From: Candidatus Peribacteraceae bacterium
Lineage (GTDB): Bacteria; Patescibacteriota; Gracilibacteria; Peribacterales; Peribacteraceae
Reading direction: 5' to 3'
Assembly (NCBI GenBank): GCA_028717505.1
Contig: JAQUNQ010000001.1
Coordinates: 1-30,314 of the forward strand
DNA: 30,314 nt
Every line of letters begins with the position of its first letter. The first letter of the stretch is position 1. A program made the position numbers and the translations under genes. Under the pieces are notes generated by a model. It made no database searches. It saw only the letters and a list, made by a program, of their open reading frames with translations, and was not told where the DNA came from. This document shows positions 2,370 to 22,003 of the stretch, piece by piece.

Positions 2370-2409
2370 GCCATGAGCGAGTCCCGCATGTGCGGGACGA
2401 GTCGAATGG
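2370..2409. repeat. tRNA-associated palindromic repeat, family 1 (CCATTCGAC...CTCA), copy at tRNA-Ile
   Basis: Reverse complement of 2374-2409 matches 21812-21847 at 35/36 nt; internal hairpin GTCCCGCA/TGCGGGAC; begins with the tRNA CCA. Confidence 0.85.
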
Positions 2410-2483
2410 TGGGCGAGGGTGGAATTGAACCACCGACCGCGGGCTTATAAGTCCCGTGCTCTAACCAACTGAGCTACTCGCCC
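2407..2483 (-). tRNA. tRNA-Ile (anticodon UAU)
   Basis: GGGCGAG-TA-GCTC-AGTTGGTTA-GAGC-A-CGGGA-CTTATAA-GCCCG-CGGTC-GGTGG-TTCAATT-CCACC-CTCGCCC-A-CCA. Cloverleaf is intact except an A31:G39 mismatch. Confidence 0.9.
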
Positions 2484-2492
2484 ACGAAAGAA

Positions 2493-3845
2493 CTATACCA
2501 TTTTTCGGACGAACTCCCTCGCCTCGCTCTTCTTCGTCACCTCGCCTTTCACCTGTGCGTCATGCAGCGCAGCGATGATCTGCCCTACTTTCTCTCCGGG
2601 GGTGAGCCCGAGAATTGCCATGATCTCATCACCGGAGAGGAGCTGCTTGGCCGGACGCGGATGGGCATCGAGAAACTGGTGATAATCCCGCAGAATCTCC
2701 CCGTACAGGGAATAGTCCTGCGGGTCCGTCCCCGCGATGTCGAGCCAGAAGAGCTCCGTCAGCTCATGGAACCACGGATGGTGGTACCAGTGCGCCTTCC
2801 GCTCGGGGGGCATCTCCTGAAAGAAGCCCATCATCATATGATGCTCGATGAGCCAGCTCACCTTGGTGCGGCGCCGCGCAGTGCACTGAAGGCGCTCTAG
2901 GACCTCACTCGCAATTTTTGCAGAAATGGGCGCGTGGGCATCGAAGCGGATGCGCTCCTGCAGCGAGAAGGTCGTCGCCTTCCCCACATCATGGAAGAGC
3001 GTGGCGATACGCACGTCGATGGCGTGCTCGGGGAGAAAGGAACGGAGTGCCAGCAACGTGTGGTCCCACACGTCGCCCTCGTGGTGAAAATCCTTCGGCT
3101 GCGCGATGCCCTTGCAGGCGTAGAGCTCGGGTGAAATGTATTGCAGGATGCGTGTTTCCCAGAGGTCCTCGTAGGCGCGATCGGGATGAGGAGTGAGGAG
3201 CATCTTCTCCATTTCCCAGAGCTTCCGTGCGCCGGAGAGCCCCTCCGCGAGCGCCGCCTGCTCCTGCAGCGCCCGGTACGTGTCCGGATGGTACTGGCCG
3301 TCGAGGAGGGCGCGGAAGCGCACCACGCGCAGGAGGCGCAGGGCATCGTGCTTGATACGCACACCCGGCTCCCCGATGAAGCGGATCATGCGTTCGAGGA
3401 GATCATCTTCTCCGTGAAAGGGGTCGTAGAGATCGCGTGAAATCGGATTGAAGTATATGGCGTTGACAGTGATATCCCGCCGCTTCGCGTCCTGGCCACG
3501 CTTCCCGAAGACCACCGCCTCGGGGTGTCGCCCGTCGGAAGCCTCATCATCCTCACGGAACGTCGTCACCTCGAAGTTGAGGCCTTTGAGCCGCACGATG
3601 ACGCTCCCGAGAGCCTTCCCGGGGGAGCCGACAGTATTCGTGAAGATCCTCAATACTTCGTCGGGCAGGGCCTCCGTCGCGATATCGATATCCTTTGGTA
3701 TGTTCCCGAGAAGCATATCGCGGACCCCTCCCCCAACCCACCATGTGTCAAATCCTGCATCAGTGAGCCCCTCCACGATCTGGTAAGCGAGCTCGCCCTG
3801 CTTCGACGCGAGCGCCTGATTCATGATGTCTTTCGAGAGAGACAC
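2493..3845 (-). CDS. cca: CCA tRNA nucleotidyltransferase / poly(A) polymerase family with HD domain
   Basis: VGGGVRDMLLG, DIDIAT, EVTTFR, DAKRRDITVNA, DALRLLRVVRF; HD region HHEGDVWDHT...LFHDVGK. GTG start 6 nt after TATACT. Confidence 0.9.
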   Translation of the reverse strand: MSLSKDIMNQALASKQGELAYQIVEGLTDAGFDTWWVGGGVRDMLLGNIPKDIDIATEALPDEVLRIFTNTVGSPGKALGSVIVRLKGLNFEVTTFREDDEASDGRHPEAVVFGKRGQDAKRRDITVNAIYFNPISRDLYDPFHGEDDLLERMIRFIGEPGVRIKHDALRLLRVVRFRALLDGQYHPDTYRALQEQAALAEGLSGARKLWEMEKMLLTPHPDRAYEDLWETRILQYISPELYACKGIAQPKDFHHEGDVWDHTLLALRSFLPEHAIDVRIATLFHDVGKATTFSLQERIRFDAHAPISAKIASEVLERLQCTARRRTKVSWLIEHHMMMGFFQEMPPERKAHWYHHPWFHELTELFWLDIAGTDPQDYSLYGEILRDYHQFLDAHPRPAKQLLSGDEIMAILGLTPGEKVGQIIAALHDAQVKGEVTKKSEAREFVRKMV

Positions 3846-3865
3846 GGACGAAGTATATCGCAGAC

Positions 3866-4117
3866 CTACTTATAGATACATTTGAGAATGAGTAAGGATG
3901 CTGCCATCAGTAATTCCACGATGGTGGTCAGGACAAACGGCATGCTGCCGATGCCGACTCCATATGCGATGCACAGGATCAATCCGGTCTGATATAGAAT
4001 CATCCAAGGAATGGAAATGTCCTTGGTCGATTTTGTCTTCCAGGATTTGATGACCTGCGGTAACAGGGCGATGGTGATCAATCCACCTGACACATATCCG
4101 AGCAATTCAAGATACAT
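3866..4117 (-). CDS. SemiSWEET (PQ-loop) sugar transporter (83 aa)
   Basis: Three hydrophobic helices and the signature LLPQVIKSWKTKSTKDIS. Confidence 0.9.
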   Translation of the reverse strand: MYLELLGYVSGGLITIALLPQVIKSWKTKSTKDISIPWMILYQTGLILCIAYGVGIGSMPFVLTTIVELLMAASLLILKCIYK

Positions 4118-4211
4118 AGAATGAAGAGGAACAAATGACTTTGTCCAATAACTGACCGCGCCAACAATAGCATTCCGTCATGCGCTCTGCACCATTCGGT
4201 ATACTGGCATT

Positions 4212-4307
4212 ATGTTTCGTTTCATTGCTGCCTCTCGGCTTCGCCACAGGTGGTCGCGACCGCCGCGGCTTCGCCCGGGACAACTCGCAGATGTAGACTG
4301 CATTTAA
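4212..4307 (+). CDS. Putative leaderless 31-aa small ORF upstream of nfo
   Basis: ATG 6 nt after TATACT (4200-4205); MFRFIAASRLRHRWSRPPRLRPGQLADVDCI*. No homology evidence. Confidence 0.3.
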   Translation: MFRFIAASRLRHRWSRPPRLRPGQLADVDCI

Positions 4308-4321
4308 ATTTTGTGATTGCT

Positions 4322-5146
4322 ATGTTGCGCTTTGCCGTTGCAGGCACTCCCCACTCCACTCCCGCTCCGGGGGGAACCGTGGAGGGCCTGATTCGGGCAC
4401 ACAAACTCGGCATCACCGCCATGGAGATCGAGTGGGTCCAGAATGTGCCGAAGAGTCCGGAGCGCATGGCGGAGATCCGCGAGACGGCAGAGGAACTCAA
4501 TATCACTCTCACCGTGCATGCGCCCTACTTCGTCAATCTGAATTCCCCGGACAAGGCCAAGCTCGCCGCAAGCAAGAGGCGCGTGCTCGATGCCCTCTCC
4601 ATGGCCGAGCTCTGCGGGGCCCGATCCGTCTGCGTACATGCGGCATTCAACCTCGGCCTCCCGCCGGAGAAAGTTTTCGACAGTGTCCGGCACGCGACGG
4701 AGGACATCATGAAGAACAAGAGCAAGGTCTTTCCTCGTGTGAACCTCGCCTACGAGACGATGGGCAAGGCTTCCCAGTTCGGGACGCTCGAAGAAGTCCT
4801 GAAGATCAGCAAGGAGTTCGGCAACTATCCCTGCGTGGATCCTGCGCACATGCATGCCCGCACGAACGGTGCGATCAATTCCGCGAAGGAGTGGGAGGAG
4901 ATGTTCGATCTCTACGAGAAAATACTCGGCAAGAAGTCCCTGAAGTCCATGCACATGCACTACTCCGGCATCGCCTACACGACGAAGGGTGAGCGGATGC
5001 ACCTGCCGCTCCGGAAGAGCGATGCGCGGTGGAAGGAGTTTCTGCAGGTTCTGAAAAAGCGGAAAATCGAAGGCATCGTGGTGTGCGAGTCACCGCTCCT
5101 CGAGGAGGACACGCTCCTCCTCCGGAACACCTTCGCACGGCTCTGA
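4322..5146 (+). CDS. nfo: Endonuclease IV-like TIM-barrel AP endonuclease, archaeal-type (274 aa)
   Basis: MLRFAVAGTP, TVHAPYFVNLNS, YETMGKASQFGTLEE, CVDPAHMHAR, HMHYSGI..GERMHLPL, VVCESP motifs. Confidence 0.8.
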   Translation: MLRFAVAGTPHSTPAPGGTVEGLIRAHKLGITAMEIEWVQNVPKSPERMAEIRETAEELNITLTVHAPYFVNLNSPDKAKLAASKRRVLDALSMAELCGARSVCVHAAFNLGLPPEKVFDSVRHATEDIMKNKSKVFPRVNLAYETMGKASQFGTLEEVLKISKEFGNYPCVDPAHMHARTNGAINSAKEWEEMFDLYEKILGKKSLKSMHMHYSGIAYTTKGERMHLPLRKSDARWKEFLQVLKKRKIEGIVVCESPLLEEDTLLLRNTFARL

Positions 5147-5184
5147 TTGATCGGTATACTTTCGATCACATTCCCTTCTCTTCT

Positions 5185-6213
5185 ATGAACATCGCCATCA
5201 ACGGATTCGGGCGCATCGGGCGTCAGGCGCTGCGCATCGTTCTCGAGAAGCACCCCGATGTGCATGTCGTCGCCATCAACGATCTCACGGACGGGCCGAC
5301 GCTCGCGCACCTCTTTGAGTTCGATTCTACCTACGGCCGTTTCGATGCCGAGGCAGGGTTCAAGGACGGGAAGCTTTCGACGAAGCACGGAGATATCGTC
5401 CTCACGGCGGAGAAAGACCCGTCGCTCCTGCCACACAAGGACCTCAAAGTGGATATCGTGCTCGAATGCACCGGGAAATTCACCAAGCGCGAGGAGGCGG
5501 CTTTGCACCTCAAGGCCGGTGCCAGGAAAGTCATCATTTCCGCGCCCGGAAAGGATGAGGTGGATGGGACGTTCGTGATCGGCGTGAATCACGAGACCTA
5601 CGATCCGAAGAAGATGCATGTGATCAGCAACGCCTCCTGCACCACGAACTGCCTCGCGCCGATGGCCAAGGTGCTTCAGGACTCCTTCGGCATCACGTAC
5701 GGTCTCATGACGACGATCCACAGCTACACGAACGACCAGAAGCTGCTCGATCTGCCGCACAAGGATCTCCGGCGCGCACGGGCCGCAGCGATCAATATGA
5801 TCCCGACGAGCACCGGCGCGGCGAAGGCCATCGGGCTCGTCATTCCGGAGCTGAAGGGCAAGATGAACGGAGTCTCCATCCGCGTACCGACCCCCACGGG
5901 CAGCATTACGGATCTCACGGTCGTGACGGCCAAGCCGACAACGGTGGAGGAAGTGAATGCTGCTTTCGAGAAGGCGGCGAACGGCAGCATGAAGGGTATT
6001 CTTGGCTACGAGACGCGCCCGCTCGTTCTGCAGGATTACGTGATGGATCCGCGCAGCTCCATCATCGATGCTCCGCTCACCCAAGTCATCGGTGGTTCGA
6101 CGGGGCTCACCACAGGCGGCACGCTCGTGAAGACCTTCTCGTGGTACGATAACGAATGGGGCTATTCGAACCGCCTCGTGGAGCTTGCGGAGTACATCGG
6201 GAGGAAGCTGTAG
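5185..6213 (+). CDS. gap: Type I glyceraldehyde-3-phosphate dehydrogenase (342 aa)
   Basis: NIAINGFGRIGR, catalytic SNASCTTNCLAP, RVPTPTGS, SWYDNEWGYSNR. Confidence 0.97.
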   Translation: MNIAINGFGRIGRQALRIVLEKHPDVHVVAINDLTDGPTLAHLFEFDSTYGRFDAEAGFKDGKLSTKHGDIVLTAEKDPSLLPHKDLKVDIVLECTGKFTKREEAALHLKAGARKVIISAPGKDEVDGTFVIGVNHETYDPKKMHVISNASCTTNCLAPMAKVLQDSFGITYGLMTTIHSYTNDQKLLDLPHKDLRRARAAAINMIPTSTGAAKAIGLVIPELKGKMNGVSIRVPTPTGSITDLTVVTAKPTTVEEVNAAFEKAANGSMKGILGYETRPLVLQDYVMDPRSSIIDAPLTQVIGGSTGLTTGGTLVKTFSWYDNEWGYSNRLVELAEYIGRKL

Positions 6214-6295
6214 TTTCCATGCTTCAGAACAGATTTCGTGGCTCCATGGAGCCATAGATTGGCGCAAGTGCTTTTCAACCCTCCCTGGCTGCGGC

Positions 6296-8203
6296 TCATT
6301 TGTCCTCCTTCTTGTCCTTCTCGTCCACGACTTCCGCATCCACGACTTTTCCCTTCTTTTCCTTTCCATCCTTTTCGTCCTTTCCTTCTTTCTTCTTCGC
6401 CTCCTCGTAGACGATCTTCCCGATCTCCATCGCCTCCTCACTGAGTTTTTCGGTCGCCTTTTTGATGTCCTCCGATGAGGCATCCTTGTTCTTCAGGAGA
6501 TCCTTGAGCTCGTTCATGCGGGTATTCACCTTCTTCTTCAAATCATCGGGGATCTTGGCGTCGTGCTCACGCATCTGCTTCTCCAGGTTGAAGACGAGCG
6601 CATCGGCGGAGTTCCGGATGTCGATCGCCTCACGCTTCTTCTTGTCCTCCTCCGCGTGCACCTCGGCGTCCTTCTTCATCTGCTCGACTTCGTCTTTGGA
6701 GAGGCCCGTGGAGCCCTTGATCGCGATGTGCTGCTCCTTGCCGGTACCGAGGTCCTTGGCCGTCACATGCAGGATGCCATTCGTGTCGATGTCGAACGTG
6801 ACCTCGATCTGGGGAACGCCGCGCGGAGCGGGCGGGATGCCGTCGAGAATGAAGCGGCCGAGGGACTTATTGTCCGCCGCCATCTCACGCTCGCCCTGCA
6901 CCACGTGTACCTCGACGGACGGCTGGTGATCCGCAGCCGTGGAGAAGATCTGGCTCTTCTTCGTCGGAATCTTCGTATTGCGCTCGATCACCTTCGTCGC
7001 GACGCTCCCGAGCGTCTCGATGCCCAGGCTCAGGGGCGTCACGTCCACGAGCACGATGTCCTTGTGGATGTCGCCGCCGAGCACGCCTCCCTGCACCGCG
7101 GCGCCGATCGCCACGACTTCATCCGGATTCACACCCATGTGCGGATCGCGACCGAAGAGCTCCTTCACCTTCTTCTGCACCGCCGGCATGCGCGTCATGC
7201 CTCCCACGAGCACCACCTCGTGGATGTCGCTCATCTTGAGCTTGGCATCCTTCAGCGCGTTCTCGCAGGGTTGCACCGTCCGTTCAATGAGACTCTCGAC
7301 GAGCGTCTCCAGCTTGGCGCGGCTGAGCTTGATCGCGAGGTGCTTGGGACCACTACTGTCCGCCGTGATGAACGGCAGATTGATCTCCGTCTGGGTCGCC
7401 GAGGAGAGCTCGATCTTGGCCTTCTCCGCCGCCTCGCGGATGCGCTGCATGGCGATCGCGTCCTTCTTTAAGTCGATGCCTTGATCTTTCTTGAACTCCT
7501 CGAGCATCCACTCCACGATGCACTGATCGAAATCATCGCCGCCGAGGTGCGTATCGCCGTTCGTCGAGATGACTTCAAAGACGCCCTCACCGAGGGCAAG
7601 CACCGACACGTCGAACGTGCCTCCCCCGAGATCGTACACGACAATCGTGTGCTCGTGCCCCTTGTCGAGACCGTAGGCGAGCGCGGCAGCCGTCGGCTCG
7701 TTGATGATGCGCACCACCTCCATTCCCGCAATCTCGCCTGCCTCCTTGGTGGCCTGCCGCTGGGAGTCGTCGAAGTACGCGGGCACCGTAATGACCGCCT
7801 TCTCGACCTTCGTGCCCAGATAGGCTTCGGCATCTCTCTTTAGCTTCTGGAGCACCTGCGCGCTCACTTCCTGCGGGAGCATCTTCTTGCCATTCACCTC
7901 CATGACCGTGCGTCCTTCCTTTCCCTCGATCACTGGAAAGGACATGCGCTTGGCCTCTTCCCTGACCTCATCATAACGACGTCCCACAAAGCGCTTGGCG
8001 GAATACACCGTACTCTTCGGATTGGTCACCGCCTGCCGCTTGGCTGTCACACCCACGAGAATTTCCCCGTCATCTTTGTAGGTGACGACGGAAGGCGTCG
8101 TGCGATTGCCTTCTGCGTTCGCGATGACGACGGGCTCGCCGCCCTCGACGACAGCAACGCAGGAATTTGTGGTCCCGAGGTCGATTCCAATGATTTTGGA
8201 CAT
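6296..8203 (-). CDS. dnaK: Molecular chaperone DnaK (635 aa)
   Basis: [72 protein letters not shown]. Confidence 0.98.
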
Positions 8204-8205
8204 AG

Positions 8206-9609
<1,404 letters not shown>

Positions 9610-9697
9610 GCTCACACAATAATCCACTATTCATGCAATGCCACCTCAAAAAGGGTCGTTGCGGCCAAACGAGCAGGGGGTACACTTCCCTACCGCT

Positions 9698-10549
9698 ATG
9701 CCGCATCGAACCCCCACTCCAAACTGGTGGACGGGAATCTCCGTCCTCTTTGTCCTCTTTTCCCTTTTCACTGCTGCCTCTGCGCAGGATTACTTTGATC
9801 CGTGCAAAGGGGGTGGCTGCACGGGTGGTCCGACTGATCCCAGCGGTGCCTGCTGTTTGAAGGAAACAGGAGGTCCCGGAGGCACGCACGCCTATGCAGC
9901 TCTGAATATTTCCGGAGCAGCTGACTGCACTCTCGCAGGTGCCAAGGCCATCATTGGCAGGGACATGCTCGATACCGTCTGGTATGAGAACAGGAACGCC
10001 GCCGTCACGGCTATCCGGCTGACAGGCGGACTCTCTTGCGTCTATTCCCCCCCGCAATCCAGTGCTGCCGCGGAGGAGAGTTCTTCCGAGAGTTCCGGCA
10101 GCCCCGCCGTGTGTGGAAACGGCACCCCGGAACTTGGCGAGCAGTGCGACACAGGAGCGAACAACAGTAATTCTCTCCCCGACCACTGTCGCTCCACTTG
10201 CCTCCTTCCCTTCTGTGGAGACCAGGCGACAGACAGTAACGAAGAATGTGACGATGGAGCCGCCAACTCCAATGAGCCCGATGCCGCCTGCCGCCCGTCC
10301 TGCCTGCTGGCGTTCTGTGGCGACGGCGTCATTGATCCCGCACGGGGAGAGGAATGCGATCCCGCATTCAGTGGGACTGACACATGCACGGACATCTGCA
10401 CCGAGATAGTGGGAACCTCCGGTGGACCTGTCTATTTCGCACCGGGCAATCCCACCGAGATTGAGGAGGTGTACAAGAACCTGCTGAATGTCTTCCTCAT
10501 GGGGCTCACTTTCCAGCTCTCGAATGCGCTGGGAATCCCTCTGCAGTAG
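9698..10549 (+). CDS. Secreted Cys-rich protein with Myxococcus-type cysteine repeats (DUF4215-like; 283 aa)
   Basis: Signal peptide ending AASA/QD; three CG(N/D)xxxxxxE(Q/E)CD repeats (CGNGTPELGEQCDTG, CGDQATDSNEECDDG, CGDGVIDPARGEECD). Confidence 0.75.
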   Translation: MPHRTPTPNWWTGISVLFVLFSLFTAASAQDYFDPCKGGGCTGGPTDPSGACCLKETGGPGGTHAYAALNISGAADCTLAGAKAIIGRDMLDTVWYENRNAAVTAIRLTGGLSCVYSPPQSSAAAEESSSESSGSPAVCGNGTPELGEQCDTGANNSNSLPDHCRSTCLLPFCGDQATDSNEECDDGAANSNEPDAACRPSCLLAFCGDGVIDPARGEECDPAFSGTDTCTDICTEIVGTSGGPVYFAPGNPTEIEEVYKNLLNVFLMGLTFQLSNALGIPLQ

Positions 10550-10564
10550 AGAAGGGAGTTTCAT

Positions 10565-13129: not shown

Positions 13130-13200
13130 GAAATAATGGGTACGTCATTTCATCGTAGCCGAAAACCACCGCACTTCAAGTATCGCCAAAGATTCGAAGG

Positions 13201-13252
13201 CCCTGAGGGCCTCTCGGGCCCGAAGGGGAGCAGCCGCGCTCTGTCGAATGGG
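13201..13252. repeat. Family-1 palindromic repeat, divergent copy downstream of tRNA-Phe
   Basis: Minus strand CCCATTCGAC...CTCAGGG has the same termini as 21811-21850; GC-rich interior differs. Confidence 0.6.
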
Positions 13253-13269
13253 TACCAAAAGAACCATCG

Positions 13270-13296
13270 CGGCGAAGCGGAGCGAAGCCGGATGGT
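13270..13296. repeat. Family-2 repeat (ACCA-TCCGGCTTCG-x-CTTCG) abutting tRNA-Phe CCA
   Basis: CGAAGCCGGATGGT (13283-13296) is identical to 21782-21795. Confidence 0.7.
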
Positions 13297-13368
13297 GGCC
13301 CAGGCCAGGATCGAACTGGCGACACCTCGCTCTTCAGGCGAGTGCTCTACCAACTGAGCTACCGGGCC
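13293..13368 (-). tRNA. tRNA-Phe (GAA), G at position 37
   Basis: GGCCCGG-TA-GCTC-AGTTGGTA-GAGC-A-CTCGC-CTGAAGA-GCGAG-GTGTC-GCCAG-TTCGATC-CTGGC-CTGGGCC-A-CCA. Confidence 0.95.
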
Positions 13369-13423
13369 ACAACGTCGGCGGAGAGCATAGCAATTCTTTC
13401 TCAGGCAGAAAAGGAGAGATTCA

Positions 13424-13452
13424 TTGAGTCTCTCCCGCCATTTCTGTAGCAT
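13424..13452 (+). promoter_or_regulatory. Probable promoter of tRNA-Ala
   Basis: TTGAGT (13424-13429)-N17-TAGCAT (13447-13452). Confidence 0.45.
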
Positions 13453-13463
13453 GTCGTCACTCT

Positions 13464-13539
13464 GGGGCTGTAGCTCAGTTGGTAGAGCGCCGCATTCGCA
13501 TTGCGGAGATCAGGGGTTCGAATCCCCTCAGCTCCACCA
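13464..13539 (+). tRNA. tRNA-Ala (CGC)
   Basis: GGGGCTG...CCGCA-TTCGCAT-TGCGG...AGGGG-TTCGAAT-CCCCT-CAGCTCC-A-CCA; G3:U70 alanine identity pair. Confidence 0.95.
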
Positions 13540-13541
13540 CA

Positions 13542-13570
13542 CTTCGCTCGCTATGGCGAGCTTCGCGTGA
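13542..13570. repeat. Family-2-like CTTCG-hairpin-CTTCG unit after tRNA-Ala
   Basis: CTTC-GCTCGC-tatg-GCGAGC-TTCG begins 3 nt after the CCA. Confidence 0.55.
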
Positions 13571-13629
13571 AGAGCCACGTTCTCCCGGCGCCCTCTTCTT
13601 CTCGTCCTTTATTTGCTTATTTAAAATGT

Positions 13630-13660
13630 ATTTGCTTAATTAAGCAAATTATATTATAAT
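13630..13660 (+). promoter_or_regulatory. vanW promoter with 20-bp perfect palindrome over the -35 box
   Basis: ATTTGCTTAATTAAGCAAAT (13630-13649) is self-complementary; TTGCTT (13632-13637)-N17-TATAAT (13655-13660). Confidence 0.75.
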
Positions 13661-13681
13661 ATACGACGAACACAAAAAACC

Positions 13682-15079
13682 ATGAAGAAAAACAAAAATA
13701 AGCACTATCTCGGCGTTCCCCTCGCGCTCCTCGGCATCGGATTTTTCTTTATTTTCGGGCCCACGCGTCAAAGTTCCTTCGGCAGTCCGGCCTTCGATTA
13801 CCGCTCGGGCTTCGCGCTGCATTTCGGTAATGTCGCAGCGTTGGCCTTCATGAGGGAAGAGCCTCCCCCCTCCTCTCCTTTCGTGAGAGTGGCACAGCGA
13901 CTCCAGAGGAGACTCGCACAGCATCAACTCGTTATCCCCCCCCTGTCACAGCTGGTCTCGGCGCTCGAGGAGCTCCGCTCCCTCCAGAGACAACGTGTTG
14001 TTGTCGCGCTGGAGACGGCAACAAATCCTGCCTATGGACGCTGGGAGGTGAATCTTCAGAAGTATCCCTCCTGGATATCTCCTTCCTTCACGGAAACGGA
14101 GGCGCACTTCCGTCTCGATGAACAGCGCATGCGCGACTATCTCATGCGGGAAGGAATTGAGGGAGTGATTCCGCCGAAAGGCATCACGCTCACTGAGGTA
14201 AAGCAGGAGAAAGAAATTCAGCGTGTCATCACCGACGATATCGCGCGTGCGGGGTATGTCGCCAATATCCCGGAAACGGTGGAGATGCTCTCCTCTGCGC
14301 TCACCCAGGGCGTGGGGAGCGGAGCTCTGCTCCTCACGGAAAGCGGCGGGCCGATCCACAATACCTCCGGACAGGACCTCGGCGCCCTCACGCTGCTCGG
14401 CACCGGACGCTCGGACTTCCGCGGCTCACCCGGAGCACGCATCTCCAATGTTCAAAAAGCTCTCCGCGAGCATGTGAGCAATACGCTCGTGCCTCCCGGT
14501 GCCACCTTCTCCTTCAATGCAACACTCGACGGACCGGTGACGGAGAGCCGCGGATGGAAGCTCGCCAAAGTCATCTTTGAAGGGAGTGAGCTCCGCATGG
14601 CGCCCGGCGGGGGCATCTGCCAGGCATCCACGACCGTCTTCCGGGCAATTGTCTCGGCGGGTTTCACGGTGCAGGAGCGCGCAAACCACAGCCTCTACGT
14701 GTCCTACTACGAGAAATATGGTGTCGGCATCGACGCAACCGTCTTCCCCGGGCAGCAGGATCTCACGTTCGTCAACGACTCCGGCAATTACCTCCTCCTG
14801 CAGGCCTATGACGAAGGGACGGAAGCAGTGGTGAATATTTACGGAACGCCGGATGGCAGGATCGTGGATCTCCGGGGCCCCTTCTTCGCAGGGAGAGAAC
14901 CGGCAGATTTCTCCTATGCGGGACGCAACAAGCTGAAGGGGAATGAAATTGCCTGGGTCCAGAACGTCACTCGTGCAGATGGAAAGGTGGAGCAGAACGT
15001 CATTATCTCGCGCTACACGGGGATGCCTGCCTCCATCCCGCGGAAGTATGCCCTCCATGCGAGTGCGATCGGGCAGTGA
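13682..15079 (+). CDS. VanW family cell-envelope protein (465 aa)
   Basis: N-terminal TM anchor; VanW domain FSFNATLDGPVTESRGW...GGGICQASTTVFRA...ERANHS...GIDATVF..QQDLTFVND. Confidence 0.88.
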   Translation: MKKNKNKHYLGVPLALLGIGFFFIFGPTRQSSFGSPAFDYRSGFALHFGNVAALAFMREEPPPSSPFVRVAQRLQRRLAQHQLVIPPLSQLVSALEELRSLQRQRVVVALETATNPAYGRWEVNLQKYPSWISPSFTETEAHFRLDEQRMRDYLMREGIEGVIPPKGITLTEVKQEKEIQRVITDDIARAGYVANIPETVEMLSSALTQGVGSGALLLTESGGPIHNTSGQDLGALTLLGTGRSDFRGSPGARISNVQKALREHVSNTLVPPGATFSFNATLDGPVTESRGWKLAKVIFEGSELRMAPGGGICQASTTVFRAIVSAGFTVQERANHSLYVSYYEKYGVGIDATVFPGQQDLTFVNDSGNYLLLQAYDEGTEAVVNIYGTPDGRIVDLRGPFFAGREPADFSYAGRNKLKGNEIAWVQNVTRADGKVEQNVIISRYTGMPASIPRKYALHASAIGQ

Positions 15080-15214
15080 TAGAAAGGGACAAGGGAAATC
15101 CATTGACAACGCGTCGTATTAACAGAGTGATGTGCGAGGTGCCTTCACAAAAATTTCACTGGCAATCAAAGTCCGATCGTCTATACTGGCCGCACTCATT
15201 TCCCTTCTTTTTCT

Positions 15215-15952
15215 ATGTCTATGCAACAGGATCCCGCGAAGTTTTGGTTCGGCCTCTCGATGGTGCTCATCGGAGTGATCGTCGGCTTCACGGCCGCCAA
15301 GACGGTCAACTTCTCCGGTTCTCTGCCGTCTCCGACCGGTGTCGCACAGCCGAAGCAGCCGACAGCCGGAAAACCGACGCCGAGTTCCGCCGCCGCCCCC
15401 GACGCGCCATCGGTGCAGAATGTGCAGGTGCCTGACGCGAAGGAACACCTCCGTGGAACTGCGAACGCGCTCATTACCATTATTGAGTACTCCGATCTTG
15501 AGTGTCCCTTCTGCGCCCGCGTCCATCCGACCATCAAGCAGGCCGTCGATGATTACGACGGCAAGGTGAACTGGGTCTTCCGCCACTACCCGCTCTCCTT
15601 CCATGCCAATGCGCAGAAGGCGGCTGAGGCAACGGAGTGTGCAACGGAGCTGGGCGGCAACGATAAATTCTGGGCAATGACCGACATGCTCTACGAGAAG
15701 GGTTCGGATAACTCGCAGCTCGGCGCGTACGCGAAGGCCATCGGTCTCAATGAGGCTGCCTTCAAGACCTGCCTGGACAGCGGAAAGTTCGCGCAGAAGA
15801 TCGACGACATGATGCAGACGGGCGTGGATGCCGGTGTGCAGGGAACGCCGGGAAACATCATCTACAACAACAAGACGAAGGCGGCGGTCATGGTGTCTGG
15901 CGCGCAACCGATCGCGAACTTCAAGACGGCGATTGACGGTCTCCTCAAGTGA
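15215..15952 (+). CDS. DsbA-family thiol:disulfide oxidoreductase (245 aa)
   Basis: N-terminal TM, Pro/Ala linker, EYSDLECPFCAR (CxxC), WVFRHYPLSFH, GVQGTPG cis-Pro loop. Confidence 0.9.
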   Translation: MSMQQDPAKFWFGLSMVLIGVIVGFTAAKTVNFSGSLPSPTGVAQPKQPTAGKPTPSSAAAPDAPSVQNVQVPDAKEHLRGTANALITIIEYSDLECPFCARVHPTIKQAVDDYDGKVNWVFRHYPLSFHANAQKAAEATECATELGGNDKFWAMTDMLYEKGSDNSQLGAYAKAIGLNEAAFKTCLDSGKFAQKIDDMMQTGVDAGVQGTPGNIIYNNKTKAAVMVSGAQPIANFKTAIDGLLK

Positions 15953-15973
15953 ACATCTCAGATAATGCAATGG

Positions 15974-15998
15974 AAAGGCGGCTTCGGCCGCCTTTTTC
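15974..15998 (+). terminator. Rho-independent terminator after dsbA
   Basis: AAAGGCGGC-TTCG-GCCGCCTTT-TT. Confidence 0.88.
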
Positions 15999-16075
15999 AT
16001 GCTGAGGAAGATATCATTTCCAGATTTACTCTCCCCAAAAGTCCGCTAAAATGAGCTGCCATTTCTCATCGACTT

Positions 16076-17089
16076 ATGCGTGCGCTCCCCCTCGGTCTCG
16101 CACTGGCTTCCCTCCTGCTCCTCTCCTGCGGCGCAGAAACGCCGGACGAACTGGAGACGATACCGGCCAATGGCCAGGAGGCCTTCTCCTCTCCGCAGGA
16201 CACCTCTTCCGGCACGCAGATCATTGAGACGCACAATGTCACCTACACGGGCATCGTGCGCCCGGCAGGGATCAGCATCTACATGGAAGGCAGCCACAAG
16301 ATGGAGCTCCCCGATAATCGCTTCATCCTCCTGGAGAGTGCGAGTGTGGATCTCAACGGGTACGTGGGCGAGATGGCAGAAGTGACCGGCTCCCTTCGCC
16401 CAACCGTGGAGGAGGGTGGCATGATCATGCGTGTGGAGAAGATCCGGCTCCTCGCAGGTTCCTCGTCGTCTGTTTCCTCTCTCTCCTCCTCTCCTCCCTC
16501 CTCAGCCACCCTTTCCTCAAAGGCATCCTCGGCGCCCTCTCCCGCCATCCCTGCCTCCTCCGCTGCGGGGCAGGCAAAGACTCCGACTTCCCCTGCCTCC
16601 TCGGCAGCAAAGCTCAGCAGCGCTTCCCCCGTCTCCTCGAGCGAGCCTGAAGAAGAAATAGAACGGACAGAGACGCCGACTTCCCCCGCTTTCCAGGCAC
16701 GCGTGACCTCTATGGCCAAGCAGAACCTCTCCGCGGAGAACTGGACGCAGCAGTACTGCACGGAACACATCGGCTTCTGCATGCCCGTCCACCGCAACTG
16801 GTGGTACAAGTCCTTCGGGACCACGACCTCTGCCCTCTGGCACGTCGAGGTCAGCTCGGAAGAAATCCAAAGCATAGGGGATGGCCCCATCGTCGTGAGC
16901 CTCGTCTCCGGATCCGTGGCGGCGAAGCACGCGACGGACGGGCAGGTCCGCGCGCAGGGGTCGCTCATCATCGCCTACCGCGAGTGGAGCGGCAACCAGC
17001 ACTTCGAGATCTCCGCTCCCTCTGCACTGGAAAACGCCGTGAGCTACATTGCAGCCAATCTCAAGGCAAACGAAGTGCCGCAGCCCTGA
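16076..17089 (+). CDS. Putative lipoprotein with Ser/Pro/Ala-rich linker (337 aa)
   Basis: Lipobox-like LLLLSC; globular N-domain, low-complexity S/P/A linker, C-domain with YCTEHIGFC Cys pair. Confidence 0.75.
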   Translation: MRALPLGLALASLLLLSCGAETPDELETIPANGQEAFSSPQDTSSGTQIIETHNVTYTGIVRPAGISIYMEGSHKMELPDNRFILLESASVDLNGYVGEMAEVTGSLRPTVEEGGMIMRVEKIRLLAGSSSSVSSLSSSPPSSATLSSKASSAPSPAIPASSAAGQAKTPTSPASSAAKLSSASPVSSSEPEEEIERTETPTSPAFQARVTSMAKQNLSAENWTQQYCTEHIGFCMPVHRNWWYKSFGTTTSALWHVEVSSEEIQSIGDGPIVVSLVSGSVAAKHATDGQVRAQGSLIIAYREWSGNQHFEISAPSALENAVSYIAANLKANEVPQP

Positions 17090-17134
17090 GCGTCAACCCC
17101 TTTCCACCCCCTTTTGGTCTGGTAGGATAGCGCC

Positions 17135-17713
17135 ATGCCATTCTTCACGTATTCGGCGCACGGATCGGACGGGAAGATACAGGAAGGCACCATCGATGCC
17201 CTGAGTCTGCAGGCGGCACGCGAGGCGCTCCGGGAGATGCGCCTGGAGCCCGACACGATCGAGGAGAAGGCCCTCGCAGGGCAGGAGTTCCCTCCCATGC
17301 CGTTCGAGCGCGAGAGCACCGCTGCCCCCGACGCCCCCTCCACGACGCCAACGGAAGTGTCTTTCTCCCCCGTCGCCCCCCCGCCGGAACTCCCATCAGC
17401 CGATACTCCAGCCGAGCCGCTCTATTTCCCTCTCCTTGATACGCTCCGCCTCTATGCGGGCTGGCTCGTCGCCTGGTACTTCCTCGTCTACGCCGTCGGC
17501 TCCTACCAGTATCAGCGCTCGCTCCCCTTCTCCATTCCCTACGTGGAGGGGCTCTTCCTCTCCCCGCTCGTCCTGAGCTTCACGCTCGCCGCCTATCTCT
17601 TCCTCGTTCTGACAGGCATCCACCGCAAAGGACACGGCGGCTTCCTCAGCGGACTCCTCCTCGCATTCGTCGGCGTTGCTGTGTTTCTCCTCTACCGGCG
17701 GAACGTGCTCTAG
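17135..17713 (+). CDS. Membrane protein with PilC/GspF-like N-terminal motif (192 aa)
   Basis: MPFFTYSAHGSDGKIQEGTIDALSLQAAREALREM resembles PilC N-termini; then a Pro-rich linker and about three TM helices. ATG 6 nt after TAGGAT. Confidence 0.7.
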   Translation: MPFFTYSAHGSDGKIQEGTIDALSLQAAREALREMRLEPDTIEEKALAGQEFPPMPFERESTAAPDAPSTTPTEVSFSPVAPPPELPSADTPAEPLYFPLLDTLRLYAGWLVAWYFLVYAVGSYQYQRSLPFSIPYVEGLFLSPLVLSFTLAAYLFLVLTGIHRKGHGGFLSGLLLAFVGVAVFLLYRRNVL

Positions 17714-18372
17714 AGGCCGAGCTGCTTGCGGATCTCCTCCGCCTGTTGCGTTTCCTGCCCGCGCGCTTTCTGCTGCTGGGAGATGGCCTGGAGATCCTTC
17801 CAGTCCTCCACATGCTTCTCCTCGAGCCGCTTGAGCTGCAGGAGGTGCTTCGGGCTCAACTCCGCAAACTTCTTCTTCTCCTCCTCAAGGATCTTCTGGA
17901 GTTCGTCGATCTGGAACTGCGAGAGCTTCGGAATGGCTTGAATAATCCTCCACTTCTCGTCACGGGTGAGGGAGATGCTGCCACGAAGGAAGGTGAGGAA
18001 CTTCTGCTCGTCGAAGTTGGTTTCCGGATGGGTCGGCACGGGAATGCCCTCGTTCGAGAGCGTGACGGTGATACTCCCGAACCGATAGTTGCCCACCTCG
18101 CCGAGGATGCGGAGATCTTCATCGTCATAGCCCATCTCCTTCGTCGCAACGGTGCCCGGCGGGGGCGGAGGCGGACCGGCGTCCGGCGGCATTGCGCCGG
18201 CTGCTCCGTCCTGCTGCCCTGCCGCAGACTGCTGCGCCTGCGGAGGCGGGGGGGGAGGCGGGGGGGGAGTGCCGAAGACTTGCGTCGGGTCGAGTCCTCC
18301 TGCCGGGATAGGATCCCCTGGACGGGGTGGATTGGCCTGATCGGAAGGCGGCGGAGGAGGAGGGGTCGCCAT
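17710..18372 (-). CDS. Hypothetical protein, Pro-rich N-terminus plus helical C-domain (220 aa)
   Basis: Protein-like composition, poly-Pro tracts, helical domain FDEQKFLTFLRGSISLTRDEKWRIIQAIPKLSQFQIDEL; TACACT box 8 nt before ATG. Confidence 0.8.
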   Translation of the reverse strand: MATPPPPPPSDQANPPRPGDPIPAGGLDPTQVFGTPPPPPPPPPQAQQSAAGQQDGAAGAMPPDAGPPPPPPGTVATKEMGYDDEDLRILGEVGNYRFGSITVTLSNEGIPVPTHPETNFDEQKFLTFLRGSISLTRDEKWRIIQAIPKLSQFQIDELQKILEEEKKKFAELSPKHLLQLKRLEEKHVEDWKDLQAISQQQKARGQETQQAEEIRKQLGL

Positions 18373-18437
18373 AGAAAAAAAGTGTACGTCTGGATCAGTC
18401 TAGCAGCGCTTCGTAGCCTGACAAACGGAAAATCACC

Positions 18438-20474
18438 TTACACAGCGAGCGCCTTCTCCGCCGCCCTGCGTGCCCGGACGATGAATTCCGGACTCCAGAA
18501 AGAGCCGATGAGCCTGTCGAAGGCCACGCCACTCTGGCGTGTGCCGAAGAGCTCCCCCGGCCCCCGGATCTTCAGGTCAATTTCCGCGAGCAGGAAACCG
18601 CTGTCATGCTCCTCCATCGCCTTTAGGCGCACCGAGCGCGCCTGCTCGGGCGTGGTGGTGAAGAGGAAACAATGGCTCTGGTGCTCGCCCCGCCCCACCC
18701 GCCCGCGGAACTGATGGAGCTGCGCGAGCCCGAAGCGCTCCGCCCCCTCGATGAGCATGACGGTCGCATTCGGGACATCGATGCCCACTTCGATGACGGA
18801 CGTGGAAATGAGCAAATCGAAGGCACGCTCCTTGAAGAGGCGCATGACTTCCGTCTTCTCCTGCGCCGCCATCTTCCCGTGGAGAATGGCGATCCGCCGG
18901 TGCAGAAAGCTCTCCTTCAGGCGCTTCTCCTCCGCTTTCACGCTCTTCACATCGAGCATCTCCTCATTCCCGGATTCCTCGATGAGCGGGCAGATGACGA
19001 AGACCTGTCGCCCTTGTCCGATCTCATGATCGATGAAGCGTTCCACGACGACGCGCTCCCCGGGGGCGACGACCTTCGTGTGGATCTTCTGGCGGTGCCC
19101 GGGCTTCTCGAGGAGGACGGAGAGATCATGATGCCCGAAGGCCGTGAGTGCGAGCGTGCGGGGGATGGGCGTGGCGGTCATCGCGAGGAAGTGCGGACTC
19201 CCCTTCTCCTGCAGGCGCTGGCGCTGCTCCACGCCGAAGCGATGCTGCTCATCCACGACGACGAACTTAAGATCGCGGAAAGACACGCTGTCCTGAATGA
19301 GCGCGTGCGTGCCCACGAGGAGATCGATGAACCCCTCGCTGAGATTCCGCTTGATTTTCAGCGCCTCCTGCGGAGGGATGGAGCCCGTGAGGAGCGCTAC
19401 GACGGGCGGCAGGCGGCGGGCAGGAACCGATTTCCCCACTGCGCGTTCCTGTTCGAGGAACGTGTGGAACTTGAGGAGCAGCCTCCCCATCGTCTCGACG
19501 TGCTGCCGTGCGAGCACCTCCGTCGGCACCATGAGTGCACACTGGCCCCCGTGGTAGAGCACGTGCGCGATCACGGCCGTCGCTACGAGCGTCTTGCCGG
19601 AACCGACGTCCCCCTCGAGGAGGCGCGACATCGGCTCGGGCTTCTCCATGTCCCGCAGGATCTCGTAGATAGCGATCTTCTGGCTTCCCGTCGGGGTGAA
19701 GCGGAGTGACTGGAAGAAGAGCTTCATGAACGCGGCATCCATGGGAATCTTCAGCCGCTCCTGCCGCGCCCCCTGCCAGTCACGCTTGCGTTCGAGTGCG
19801 GCCATCTGGATCCGGTACATCTCCTCGAAGGCGATGCGCTGCATGGCGCGCTCCACCTCTTCCGGCTTCTCGGGGAAGTGCAGCGCCCGGATGGCATCCT
19901 TCCGCGAGAGGAGCCCCTCCTCGCGGATTACGGGCTCCGGGAGTGACTCGGAGAGCTGCTCGATGGCCTCTTTCACGAGGACCATCTTCTCGCGGAGCCA
20001 CTTGGTGGAGATGATATCGTGCTGCGGGTAGATGGGCACGAGCCGGCCCGCATGGACGAGGGGGCGCATCCCGGCCTGCTCGAACTGGGGACTCTGCATC
20101 TTGAGCTTATAGCCCTCCTCAATCAGCTTCCCCGTGAGCACCACCTCCCCGCCCTCGCGGAGCATGCGCTTCACGTGCGGCTGATTGAACCAGACGATCT
20201 CCGCCGTCGCGCCATCCGTGTCGATGAAGCGCGCAGTGACGAGGGACTTCCCCCGTCGTGTCCGGATGAGCTTGATATTCTCCACGGTTCCGCGAAGCGT
20301 CACCTTCGCATCGAGCGCCGCGGTCGCAAGCGTCTGGATCTGGCTCAGGTCCTCGTGGCTCCGTGGGAGGTAGAGAAGGAGATCCTCCACCGTCTTCAGG
20401 CCCATCCCTTCGAGGGCCTGCCAGTGCTGCGGCGTCGTGCGCAGAACATCCTTGAGGGGCGCGGAAAGTTGCAC
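18438..20474 (-). CDS. recG: ATP-dependent DNA helicase RecG (678 aa)
   Basis: DLLLYLPR, RLLEGDVGSGKT, VGTHALIQ, VVDEQHRFGVEQR, MTATPIPRTL, LHQFRGRVGRG, DLKIRGPGE. GTG 6 nt after TATACT. Confidence 0.97.
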   Translation of the reverse strand: MQLSAPLKDVLRTTPQHWQALEGMGLKTVEDLLLYLPRSHEDLSQIQTLATAALDAKVTLRGTVENIKLIRTRRGKSLVTARFIDTDGATAEIVWFNQPHVKRMLREGGEVVLTGKLIEEGYKLKMQSPQFEQAGMRPLVHAGRLVPIYPQHDIISTKWLREKMVLVKEAIEQLSESLPEPVIREEGLLSRKDAIRALHFPEKPEEVERAMQRIAFEEMYRIQMAALERKRDWQGARQERLKIPMDAAFMKLFFQSLRFTPTGSQKIAIYEILRDMEKPEPMSRLLEGDVGSGKTLVATAVIAHVLYHGGQCALMVPTEVLARQHVETMGRLLLKFHTFLEQERAVGKSVPARRLPPVVALLTGSIPPQEALKIKRNLSEGFIDLLVGTHALIQDSVSFRDLKFVVVDEQHRFGVEQRQRLQEKGSPHFLAMTATPIPRTLALTAFGHHDLSVLLEKPGHRQKIHTKVVAPGERVVVERFIDHEIGQGRQVFVICPLIEESGNEEMLDVKSVKAEEKRLKESFLHRRIAILHGKMAAQEKTEVMRLFKERAFDLLISTSVIEVGIDVPNATVMLIEGAERFGLAQLHQFRGRVGRGEHQSHCFLFTTTPEQARSVRLKAMEEHDSGFLLAEIDLKIRGPGELFGTRQSGVAFDRLIGSFWSPEFIVRARRAAEKALAV

Positions 20475-20577
20475 GAAGGCAGTATACCGTCAGGCCTACC
20501 AAGCCAGCACCTCTGTCCCTTGTCAGCCCCGATTCGTTGCCGCAGCCCCCTTGAGATGGGAAAATTGCCTTATGCGT

Positions 20578-21051
20578 ATGAAAACTCTCCCCCTTGCCCT
20601 CAGTGCCGCTCTTCTGGCCCTCTCCTTCACTGCACCCGCATTGGCCGCCGATAGTGACTCCTCCGGGACGGGCTCCACCCTTCCGGTCACTTCCCCGGTG
20701 GACGAGGATCTCCAGCGTTTTGAAGATGAGTGCCGCTCACGCTTCAATTTCGGTCAGGGGGATCTGCAGGGACAGGGAGCCCTCCTCTTCAAGATCCGGG
20801 AGTGCGTCAATCAGCTGCAGCAGGAGAAGCGGACGGCCGAGAAGCGGGAGAAGGAACGCGAGCGTCTCCGACTCAGAGAGGAACGGGAGGCAGTGAGGCG
20901 CGCGAACATCTCCGCGCGGATGCGCCATGGCTTCGAGGCGTCTGCAGAGCGAAATGCCCTGAGGCTCCGTGGACAGGGACGAAGTACAACCCAGAGCCGC
21001 GACCCCAAGGTCTACCTGAAGATACGCAGGAGTCTGCGTTCCACGCAGTAA
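20578..21051 (+). CDS. Secreted hypothetical protein, coiled-coil and Arg-rich (157 aa)
   Basis: Signal peptide MKTLPLALSAALLALSFTAPALA; two Cys; charged helical C-half. Confidence 0.7.
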   Translation: MKTLPLALSAALLALSFTAPALAADSDSSGTGSTLPVTSPVDEDLQRFEDECRSRFNFGQGDLQGQGALLFKIRECVNQLQQEKRTAEKREKERERLRLREEREAVRRANISARMRHGFEASAERNALRLRGQGRSTTQSRDPKVYLKIRRSLRSTQ

Positions 21052-21090
21052 AGCATGTTTATCTTCGGAAGAAGGCGGTATGATGGAAAC

Positions 21091-21747
21091 ATGGAAGAAC
21101 TCCTCGATGTGTATGATCTGCAGGATCGCCTGATTGGCGTGGAGGAGCGCTCAAAGTTCTACCGCGAGATCGAGGCGGAGTTCAAAGCAAAGAGGAAGAT
21201 CACGAAGAAGGTGAAGACCATCCGCGTCCTCCTCATGAATTCGCAGGGACGCGTCTACGTCCAAAAGCGCAGCCTCATCAAGATGCACAACGCGGGCCTC
21301 TACGACAAGACGATCGGCGGACACATTCTCCATGGTCATACCGTGCACGTCACGCTCGTGAAGGAATGCGCGGAGGAGCTCGGCATCCCCGCGGTCATGC
21401 TTCCGGATGACGAGTTCGCCCGCGCCGTCACCTCGACGAACCTCGGCATCATCGGCATCTTCAAGAAGACGGAACTCGTCACGCATTACCCCTCCGTCCG
21501 GAAGACGAAGGAGGAGGATATCCTGCAACCGTTCATCAATACCTTCATCATTGGCTACTACGACGGAGCCATCCGGTTCTGTGACGGAGAGTCCTCCGGC
21601 ATCGAGGTCTTCGGTCTCCCGGAGCTGCGGGACGCCATTCTCAAAAATCCCGAGCGCTACACGGACGACCTGCGTCACTTCATCGAGAAATATCAGCAGC
21701 ACATTATTCCCGTCAAAAAGATCAAGATTCCTCCTGCGGAGGTGTGA
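21091..21747 (+). CDS. Nudix hydrolase, IDI type-1-like (218 aa)
   Basis: ELLDVYD...IG; YVQKRSLIK...GLYDKTIGGH; variant Nudix box GHILHGHTVHVTLVKECAEELGI. ATG 6 nt after TATGAT. Confidence 0.8.
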   Translation: MEELLDVYDLQDRLIGVEERSKFYREIEAEFKAKRKITKKVKTIRVLLMNSQGRVYVQKRSLIKMHNAGLYDKTIGGHILHGHTVHVTLVKECAEELGIPAVMLPDDEFARAVTSTNLGIIGIFKKTELVTHYPSVRKTKEEDILQPFINTFIIGYYDGAIRFCDGESSGIEVFGLPELRDAILKNPERYTDDLRHFIEKYQQHIIPVKKIKIPPAEV

Positions 21748-21766
21748 TGTTTCGAACAAACATCTC

Positions 21767-21811
21767 GGCGTAGTCCGCAGACGAAGCCGGATGGTCGGGG
21801 CGGCGCGACTC
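21767..21811 (-). repeat. Duplicated 3' end of tRNA-Pro plus family-2 repeat
   Basis: TGGTCGGGGCGGCGCGACTC at 21792-21811 equals 21927-21946; followed on the minus strand by TCCGGCTTCG-tctgcgga-CTACG-CCG. Confidence 0.85.
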
Positions 21812-21929
21812 CCATTCGACTCGTCCCGCACGTGCGGGACTCGCTCAGGGTAAACTTCTCGTCGCGCTTTCGTTCTCACGACAGTGTGGCTTGCCATGAG
21901 TGAACGAACGGAGTGAGTGAATCGAATGG
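21812..21929. mobile_element. Non-autonomous REPIN/MITE-like mini-element at the tRNA-Pro 3' end
   Basis: Terminal inverted repeats CCATTCGACTC (21812-21822) / GAATCGAATGG (21919-21929), 10/11 match; two inverted family-1 units; flanked by a 20-bp direct repeat of the tRNA end. Confidence 0.65.
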
Positions 21930-22003
21930 TCGGGGCGGCGCGACTCGAACGCGCGACCTCCTGCTCCCAAAGCAGGCACTCTAGCCAACTGAGCTACGCC
22001 CCG
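21927..22003 (-). tRNA. tRNA-Pro (UGG)
   Basis: CGGGGCG-TA-GCTC-AGTTGGCTA-GAGT-G-CCTGC-TTTGGGA-GCAGG-AGGTC-GCGCG-TTCGAGT-CGCGC-CGCCCCG-A-CCA. Confidence 0.95.

Follow-up and report, generated by a model that had tools for sequence, protein, structure and literature searches.

Why do several tRNA genes of one bacterium run, directly at their encoded CCA, into the same short hairpin repeat, and what could have placed it there? The question is raised by a 30,314-nt stretch of DNA (the window), which is the whole of contig C1 (JAQUNQ010000001.1) of the assembly of an ultra-small Candidatus Peribacteraceae bacterium, from the Peregrinibacteria within the CPR/Patescibacteria (GCA_028717505.1; 1.07 Mb, 131 contigs, 60% GC, 96% complete). 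Forty-five tRNA genes were detected in this assembly. Four of them, tRNA-Ile(UAU), tRNA-Phe, tRNA-Ala and tRNA-Pro(UGG), lie within the window, and an Rfam scan of the window returned these four tRNAs as its only matches. A sequence-only reading of the window had claimed four related units close to its tRNA genes, a repeat that we call family 1. All four were located where that reading had placed them. The results presented below lead us to regard family 1 as an end module belonging to a small selfish element whose docking site is the 3' end of tRNA-like genes, an interpretation to which we assign a probability of roughly 0.6. The units of the window and the two tRNA genes that they abut are as follows.

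2371 to 2409, minus strand: family-1 unit of type A (CTCATGG end), on the CCA of tRNA-Ile(UAU)
2407 to 2483, minus strand: tRNA-Ile(UAU) gene, with encoded CCA
13201 to 13251, minus strand: degenerate family-1-like unit, sharing only the termini CCATTCGAC and CTCAGGG
21812 to 21850, plus strand: family-1 unit of type A' (CTCAGGG, then TAAACTTCTC), inverted; right end of a mini-element
21894 to 21929, minus strand: family-1 unit of type A, on the CCA of tRNA-Pro; left end of the mini-element
21927 to 22003, minus strand: tRNA-Pro(UGG) gene, with encoded CCA

The family-1 unit is 35-43 bases long and consists of fixed ends with a variable hairpin between them. An alignment of 13 copies from this genome reads CCATTCGACTC, then a variable interior, then TCGCTCA(T/G)GG. 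Two types can be distinguished. Type A, located on tRNA ends, has CTCATGG followed by CAAGCCAC or TAAACCAC, and type A', which is inverted or distant from tRNAs, has CTCAGGG followed by TAAACTTCTC. The units at 2371-2409 and 21894-21929 both begin with the CCA of their tRNA, as had been noticed from the sequence alone. The reported near-identity of two copies 19 kb apart was also borne out: the units at 2371-2409 (minus strand) and 21812-21850 (plus strand) are both 39 nt long and 95% complementary. The description of the repeat as palindromic holds for the interior hairpin, which is GTCCCGCA-CA-TGCGGGAC in the unit 2371-2409. It does not hold for the two conserved termini, whose mutual complementarity is limited to CCAT/ATGG, nor for every copy: the hairpin is absent from some of them, including the tRNA-Pro copy 21894-21929. 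The unit at 13201-13251 starts 42 nt downstream of tRNA-Phe and has a 35-nt interior. It is counted as degenerate because only its termini are kept and because a profile built from the other copies missed it (E<10).

The genome and its relatives were screened with the pattern CCATTCGRYTC-N(10-22)-YCRCTCAKGG, and the reversed pattern served as the control. Eleven exact matches were found in this genome and none with the reversed pattern, so the units occur far above chance. Eight of the 17 profile hits (E<1) begin exactly at a tRNA CCA. Since the genome contains ~31,000 CCA triplets and 45 tRNA ends, this placement is not due to chance. The tRNAs bearing a unit on their CCA are Ile-UAU, Pro-UGG, Ser-CGA, Met, Arg-UCG, Ser-GCU, Leu-UAA and, in part, Tyr, and the Glu-UUC tRNA bears a variant unit. 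Four further profile hits (E<1), mostly inverted, lie within 120 nt downstream of a tRNA, as does a weak hit (E=7.8) behind tRNA-Ser(GCU). The proposed anchoring on tRNA CCA ends therefore stands as a strong concentration and not as a strict rule, since 5-6 copies lie behind protein-coding genes. Within this genome, hairpins recur in sets: GTCCCGCA.. is present twice and CCCCGCATGCGCGGGG four times.

The relatives screened were 121 genomes of the same family and 220 genomes from other families of the class. The unit was present in 68 of the former, with ~218 matches in total, and in 19 of the latter. The reversed pattern gave no match in any genome screened, which excludes chance. Position was assessed in a sample of 30 loci, one from each of 30 other genomes. 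Here 21 units begin at the CCA of a called tRNA, representing many different species, one lies on a tmRNA and one on a tRNA truncated at a contig end, giving 23 of 30. Units on a CCA are always on the tRNA strand, and a unit followed by an inverted unit was seen in about 9-12 of 36 loci. The scan thus yielded many further copies and an enrichment at tRNA 3' ends. The flanks of the unit are identical across genera and the interior varies, in agreement with the conserved termini and variable interior described earlier: 41 units contained 38 different interiors. Twenty-nine of these 41 interiors fold with z below -2, and most are perfect hairpins. The same hairpin is often common to the copies within one genome (for example in G049, G115, G005, G133 and G097), which points to recent copying inside genomes.

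One linked change was observed in the flanks: GACTC accompanies TCGCTC in 40 units and GATTC accompanies TCACTC in 7 units, while the remaining 4 units are mixed and the opposite mix does not occur in the set. A CGA/UCG helix between the flanks was considered and fails to account for this linked C..G to T..A change. The change has the form of a base pair, yet no helix explains it, and it may instead mark two lineages of the element. We also considered the unit as tRNA positions 54-76 interrupted by a hairpin. This idea was dropped because the hairpin-less 23-nt form that it predicts is absent from this genome. The likeness of TTCGAYTC to a T-loop is a plain resemblance.

Which gene could serve such a repeat? 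Four loci of relatives (L150, L157, L160 and L162) share one arrangement: first a type A unit, next an inverted unit, then an A-rich stretch and finally a GIY-YIG open reading frame (ORF) of 84-86 codons. At L157 (relative G069, ~1115-1935) the first unit of this series sits on the CCA of tmRNA, and the target is therefore a tRNA-like 3' domain rather than tRNA genes as such. The linked GIY-YIG subfamily is present in 34 of the 121 family genomes, in 1-2 copies each, and a unit precedes at least 17 of the listed genes, on the same strand and at a distance of 110-250 nt. Of the 34 genomes with the gene, 29 contain units, compared to 39 of the 87 that lack it (Fisher p = 4e-5, for relatives that are not independent). 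The nuclease is thus linked to the unit both physically and phyletically, and GIY-YIG, one of the candidate partners named from the sequence alone, is supported. All catalytic residues (Y, Y, G, R, H and E) are invariant, and the nearest solved structures are UPF0213 proteins (1zg2, E = 2e-14, and 1ywl).

The association of GIY-YIG genes with tRNA genes extends beyond this subfamily. Four of the five GIY-YIG genes of the present genome lie directly behind tRNA genes. Other GIY-YIG subfamilies in relatives (L007, L032 and L040) are bracketed by 18-20-nt repeats of the tRNA end, and for one of them a tRNA on the same strand lies immediately upstream at ~52 of 80 loci from many phyla. On contig C57 (1375-1590) of this genome, a GIY-YIG gene behind tRNA-Gly(UCC) has an in-frame TGA and is followed by a 13-nt tRNA-end repeat and a trailer of a second repeat family (family 2). 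This gene is probably a decaying copy.

The sequence-only reading had also named a HUH partner, in which case the units would be REP/REPIN repeats moved by a RAYT (a HUH Y1 transposase). Short hairpin repeats that sometimes form inverted pairs and stand in mosaics with other palindromes behind genes are what such a system would produce, and one Y1_Tnp-like domain is encoded in the genome. However, in the sole PF01797 gene (contig C34, 4435-5598) the domain is joined to another one, neither family-1 units nor hairpins flank this gene, and the gene linked to the unit in relatives encodes a GIY-YIG nuclease. No tie between REPs and tRNA CCA ends is known. We consider movement by a RAYT extremely improbable. 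The C34 gene itself is a 387-aa ORF with the Y1_Tnp (IS200/RAYT-like) domain at its N-terminus and no flanking repeats; by eye, the remainder of its sequence looks like a nucleoside triphosphate pyrophosphatase.

The tRNA-Pro locus shows how the unit can be combined with an inverted copy. Besides the two units and the tRNA gene, it comprises three features.

21851 to 21893, minus strand: inner part of the mini-element, with ends CAAGCCAC and GAGAAGTTTA
21791 to 21811, minus strand: 21 nt that repeat the tRNA-Pro 3' end exactly and in direct orientation (G57 to A76 plus one base), identical to 21926-21946
21761 to 21790, minus strand: family-2 trailer, TCCGGCTTCG-hairpin-CTACGCCGAGATG

Read on the tRNA strand, the order is tRNA-Pro, type A unit, 43-nt spacer, inverted A' unit, 21-nt repeat and family-2 trailer. 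The unit and its inverted copy delimit a 112-nt insert, whose inverted ends of ~36-39 nt are partly alike (the termini are the same and the interiors differ) and which folds as a long DNA hairpin (z = -2.1). Its inner ends, CAAGCCAC and GAGAAGTTTA, are common to inserts behind tRNA-Leu(UAA) on contig C130, where the same insert is found, and behind tRNA-Gln(CUG) on contig C6, where the right end alone occurs twice, with the repeat. The repeats of the tRNA 3' end measure 21 nt at tRNA-Pro, 20 nt at tRNA-Leu(UAA), 19-20 nt at tRNA-Gln (three copies) and 18 nt at tRNA-Ile(GAU). In relative G014 (L008), the same family-2 trailer lies directly behind tRNA-Pro(UGG). The trailer at 21761-21790 is therefore the older neighbour of the tRNA, pushed away by an insertion, and an addition of 133 nt to the G014-type empty site yields the filled one. 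An independent contig from the source run has the same arrangement, and the empty form of the site was not found among the source-run contigs.

Repeats of 18-21 nt from G57 to the CCA, as seen at tRNA-Pro, tRNA-Leu(UAA), tRNA-Gln(CUG) and tRNA-Ile(GAU), have the usual geometry of attachment sites. Units and repeats could accordingly be attL/attR scars of tyrosine-integrase islands or phages whose cargo was later deleted, and a low-GC stretch with two ORFs of no recognised family among the tRNA-Gln fragments on contig C6 would suit this explanation. It is nevertheless very unlikely, since the same 110-nt non-coding insert with the same ends is found at three different tRNAs, most copies of the unit have no tRNA-end repeat, and the accompanying gene in relatives encodes a GIY-YIG nuclease and no integrase. 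The genome contains one weak partial PF00589 match (contig C51, 33 bits), away from these loci. The stretch on contig C6 (3340-5100, L001), behind tRNA-Gln(CUG), has ~30-43% GC compared to 60% for the genome and contains ORFs of 175 and 264 aa, neither with a Pfam match. Copies of the tRNA 3' end, with a family-1 right end before each, stand on both sides of the first ORF, and the second lies beyond the last copy.

If the element moves, orthologous tRNAs should differ in whether they carry it, and the comparison of filled and empty sites among relatives revealed that they do. Of the ~19 relatives with a readable trailer, only G022 resembles this genome in having a unit on tRNA-Ile(UAU). The trailers of tRNA-Pro(UGG) vary among 19 relatives, and the set of unit-bearing tRNAs changes from genome to genome. 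This variable occupancy favours gain or mobility over a fixed processing signal. Conservation of the tRNA-Ile(UAU) gene itself (window 2407-2483, loci L177-L195) extends to at least 19 of the 24 genera sampled in the family; the gene is therefore a family-wide trait and no oddity of this genome. Downstream of the same tRNA in relative G004 (L179), the 3' part of the tRNA recurs as partial tandem copies, and in front of every copy stands the same 50-nt piece, which contains a GTCCGCC..GGCGGAT hairpin.

Variable occupancy also bears on the second proposal of the sequence-only reading, that the unit is a signal for trailer processing or termination. In this explanation the unit, perhaps taken over from an element, serves the host as a signal within the tRNA 3' trailer, and CCA/UGG pairing around the hairpin would guide an endonuclease, end transcription or shield downstream genes. 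The unit lies exactly on the CCA and always on the tRNA strand, its flanks are identical in many genera, and its stem changes by paired substitutions, as expected of a selected structure. In the predicted RNA fold of tRNA-Ile plus unit, the CCAU of the tRNA pairs with the AUGG of the unit (z = -4.1 for the whole molecule). A check for intrinsic terminators found no T run in the sequence after the units, in line with the earlier remark that no U-tailed terminators follow these tRNAs. Against this, the orthologous tRNAs of relatives mostly have no unit and the carriers differ by genome, inverted copies and copies behind protein-coding genes exist, hairpins are common to copies within a genome as after recent copying, and the tRNA-Pro unit was inserted before an older trailer. 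A hairpin directly after the CCA would also impede exonucleolytic trimming. A host signal is therefore disfavoured, and we regard it as unlikely.

Taken together, one or two coding copies beside several gene-less ones, fixed flanks, turnover of the hairpin and its sharing within genomes, and variable occupancy fit a selfish, nuclease-associated repeat with non-autonomous copies. In the selfish-element interpretation, the docking region would comprise the T-arm, the acceptor strand and the CCA. The element would exist in three forms, namely a solitary unit, a pair of unit and inverted unit of ~110 nt, and such a pair with a GIY-YIG gene of ~85 codons, and the copies of the window would be gene-less forms. 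That the nuclease cuts at the unit, and the manner in which copies move, we infer as follows. By analogy with the Ssn nucleases and their NTS repeats, the fixed flanks and the hairpin may constitute a site that the single-domain GIY-YIG nuclease recognises when the DNA is unwound or single-stranded. The nuclease would break the DNA at the end of a tRNA gene, and repair would then copy the element from a filled site. The tRNA-end repeats at some loci could provide homology for this repair or be its product. The tRNA would remain intact because the element abuts or regenerates its 3' end.

Several points weigh against this interpretation. Neither cleavage nor movement has been observed, and GIY-YIG enzymes cut by hydrolysis, so that strand joining is beyond them. 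The linked nuclease subfamily is absent from this genome, in which the best match is 36% identical; this paralog sits behind tRNA-Glu(UUC) in a related layout. Thirty-nine relatives bear units without the linked nuclease gene. The copies behind protein-coding genes in this genome stand in mosaics with other palindromes. Most family-1 loci of relatives have no tRNA-end repeat, and the 20-21-nt repeat is therefore not a general signature of insertion. Finally, the exact conservation of the flanks across genera is also compatible with a host function.

The closest parallel is found in the Ssn nucleases, which cut single-stranded DNA beside the NTS/SRM hairpin repeat (Chenal et al., Nat Commun 2025, PMC11893778). 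In both systems a single-domain GIY-YIG gene (~85-100 codons) adjoins a hairpin repeat with oriented, non-palindromic flanks, many extra copies of the repeat exist, and a hairpin core of this genome, TCCCGCA..TGCGGGA, resembles the NTS core. In contrast to NTS, in which the reverse applies, the flanks are fixed and the hairpin varies here, and tRNA is not mentioned in PMC11893778. The SRM motif itself gave 9 hits in this genome compared to 11-15 in block-shuffled genomes, and none of the hits is a family-1 unit.

Family 1 shares with REP/REPIN-RAYT systems the pattern of 1-2 coding copies with many short gene-less hairpin copies, inverted pairs and mosaics of repeat families. It differs in its partner, which is a hydrolytic GIY-YIG nuclease and not one of the HUH enzymes, which become covalently linked to DNA, and in the position of most copies on tRNA or tmRNA CCA ends, the sole Y1 gene being unflanked. 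SegB, a free-standing GIY-YIG homing endonuclease of T-even phages, is encoded in a tRNA gene cluster (PMC2330249). The likeness lies in GIY-YIG genes among tRNA genes and in a spread presumed to proceed via a break and repair from the filled copy. Seg proteins are larger and have separate DNA-binding domains, whereas the proteins described here consist of the nuclease domain only. Nor are Seg genes known to have hairpin end modules, gene-less copies or tRNA-end repeats.

Integrative islands and casposons likewise target the 3' portion of tRNA or tmRNA genes, whose integrity is preserved by a direct repeat, and repeated insertion produces arrays, as at tRNA-Gln on contig C6. Unlike them, the present inserts have no integrase or Cas1, are non-coding and 90-130 nt long, occur in the same form at different tRNAs, and lack the repeat in most copies. 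The 112-nt tRNA-Pro insert resembles a miniature inverted-repeat transposable element (MITE) in being a small non-coding element with terminal inverted repeats. It differs from a MITE in having no fixed-length target-site duplication (18-21 nt, at some loci only) and in a linked gene that encodes a nuclease and not a transposase. A search of the literature on GIY-YIG proteins with tRNA or UPF0213 found no description of tRNA-docked cassettes. New here are the conserved end module with its two types, its presence on tmRNA, the link to one nuclease subfamily, and the sharing of hairpins within genomes as opposed to their divergence between genomes. We tentatively suggest that these features could define an undescribed class of mobile elements, composed of a hairpin end module and a GIY-YIG protein reduced to its nuclease domain. 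Such a class would recognise tRNA-like genes of any kind (tmRNA and many tRNA species) by their 3' domain, settle on the CCA end without damage to the gene and seed gene-less copies for the nuclease to serve in trans. It might extend throughout one class of bacteria in the candidate phyla radiation (CPR) and, with other GIY-YIG subfamilies, through many phyla.

Family 1 is accompanied by other repeats at tRNA ends. In the window, one further row illustrates the layering of repeat families.

13264 to 13292, minus strand: family-2 trailer directly behind the CCA of tRNA-Phe(GAA)

The start motif of family 2 (TCCGGCTYCG-hairpin-..CGCCGNGAT) occurs 39 times in this genome, in 11 cases on a tRNA CCA end. 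Family 3 (CGTAAAATCGCTCGC..GATCACGTGGCGC) is found behind tRNA-Trp and two tRNA-Met genes. There are thus at least two trailer families beyond family 1, and units of families 1-3 together are present on ~20 of the 45 tRNAs. Duplications also affect 5' ends: ahead of the intact genes for tRNA-Gln(CUG), tRNA-Trp and tRNA-Met, at a distance of 60-70 nt, stands a second copy of their first 16-19 nt (contig C6, 3068-3145; C17, 5286-5364; C107, 1712-1802; C2, 1-102). The inserts at these sites share short motifs and have their break in the D-loop.

If the selfish-element interpretation is true, it has consequences for annotation, in the form of tRNA fragments, false ORFs and contig breaks at tRNA genes. 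Site-specific single-strand nucleases of the Ssn type are of interest as tools, and a family whose flanks are fixed while its hairpin is free may be of use in this respect. The widespread small GIY-YIG proteins of UPF0213 type would gain a concrete role, together with a candidate DNA site open to testing in vitro, and the tRNA gene fragments in CPR genomes would be accounted for. In this bacterium, nearly half of the tRNA genes (the ~20 of 45 occupied by families 1-3) would bear selfish repeats on their 3' ends, and the CCA end of tRNA and tmRNA genes would be a general landing site for a nuclease-linked element that has neither integrase nor transposase.

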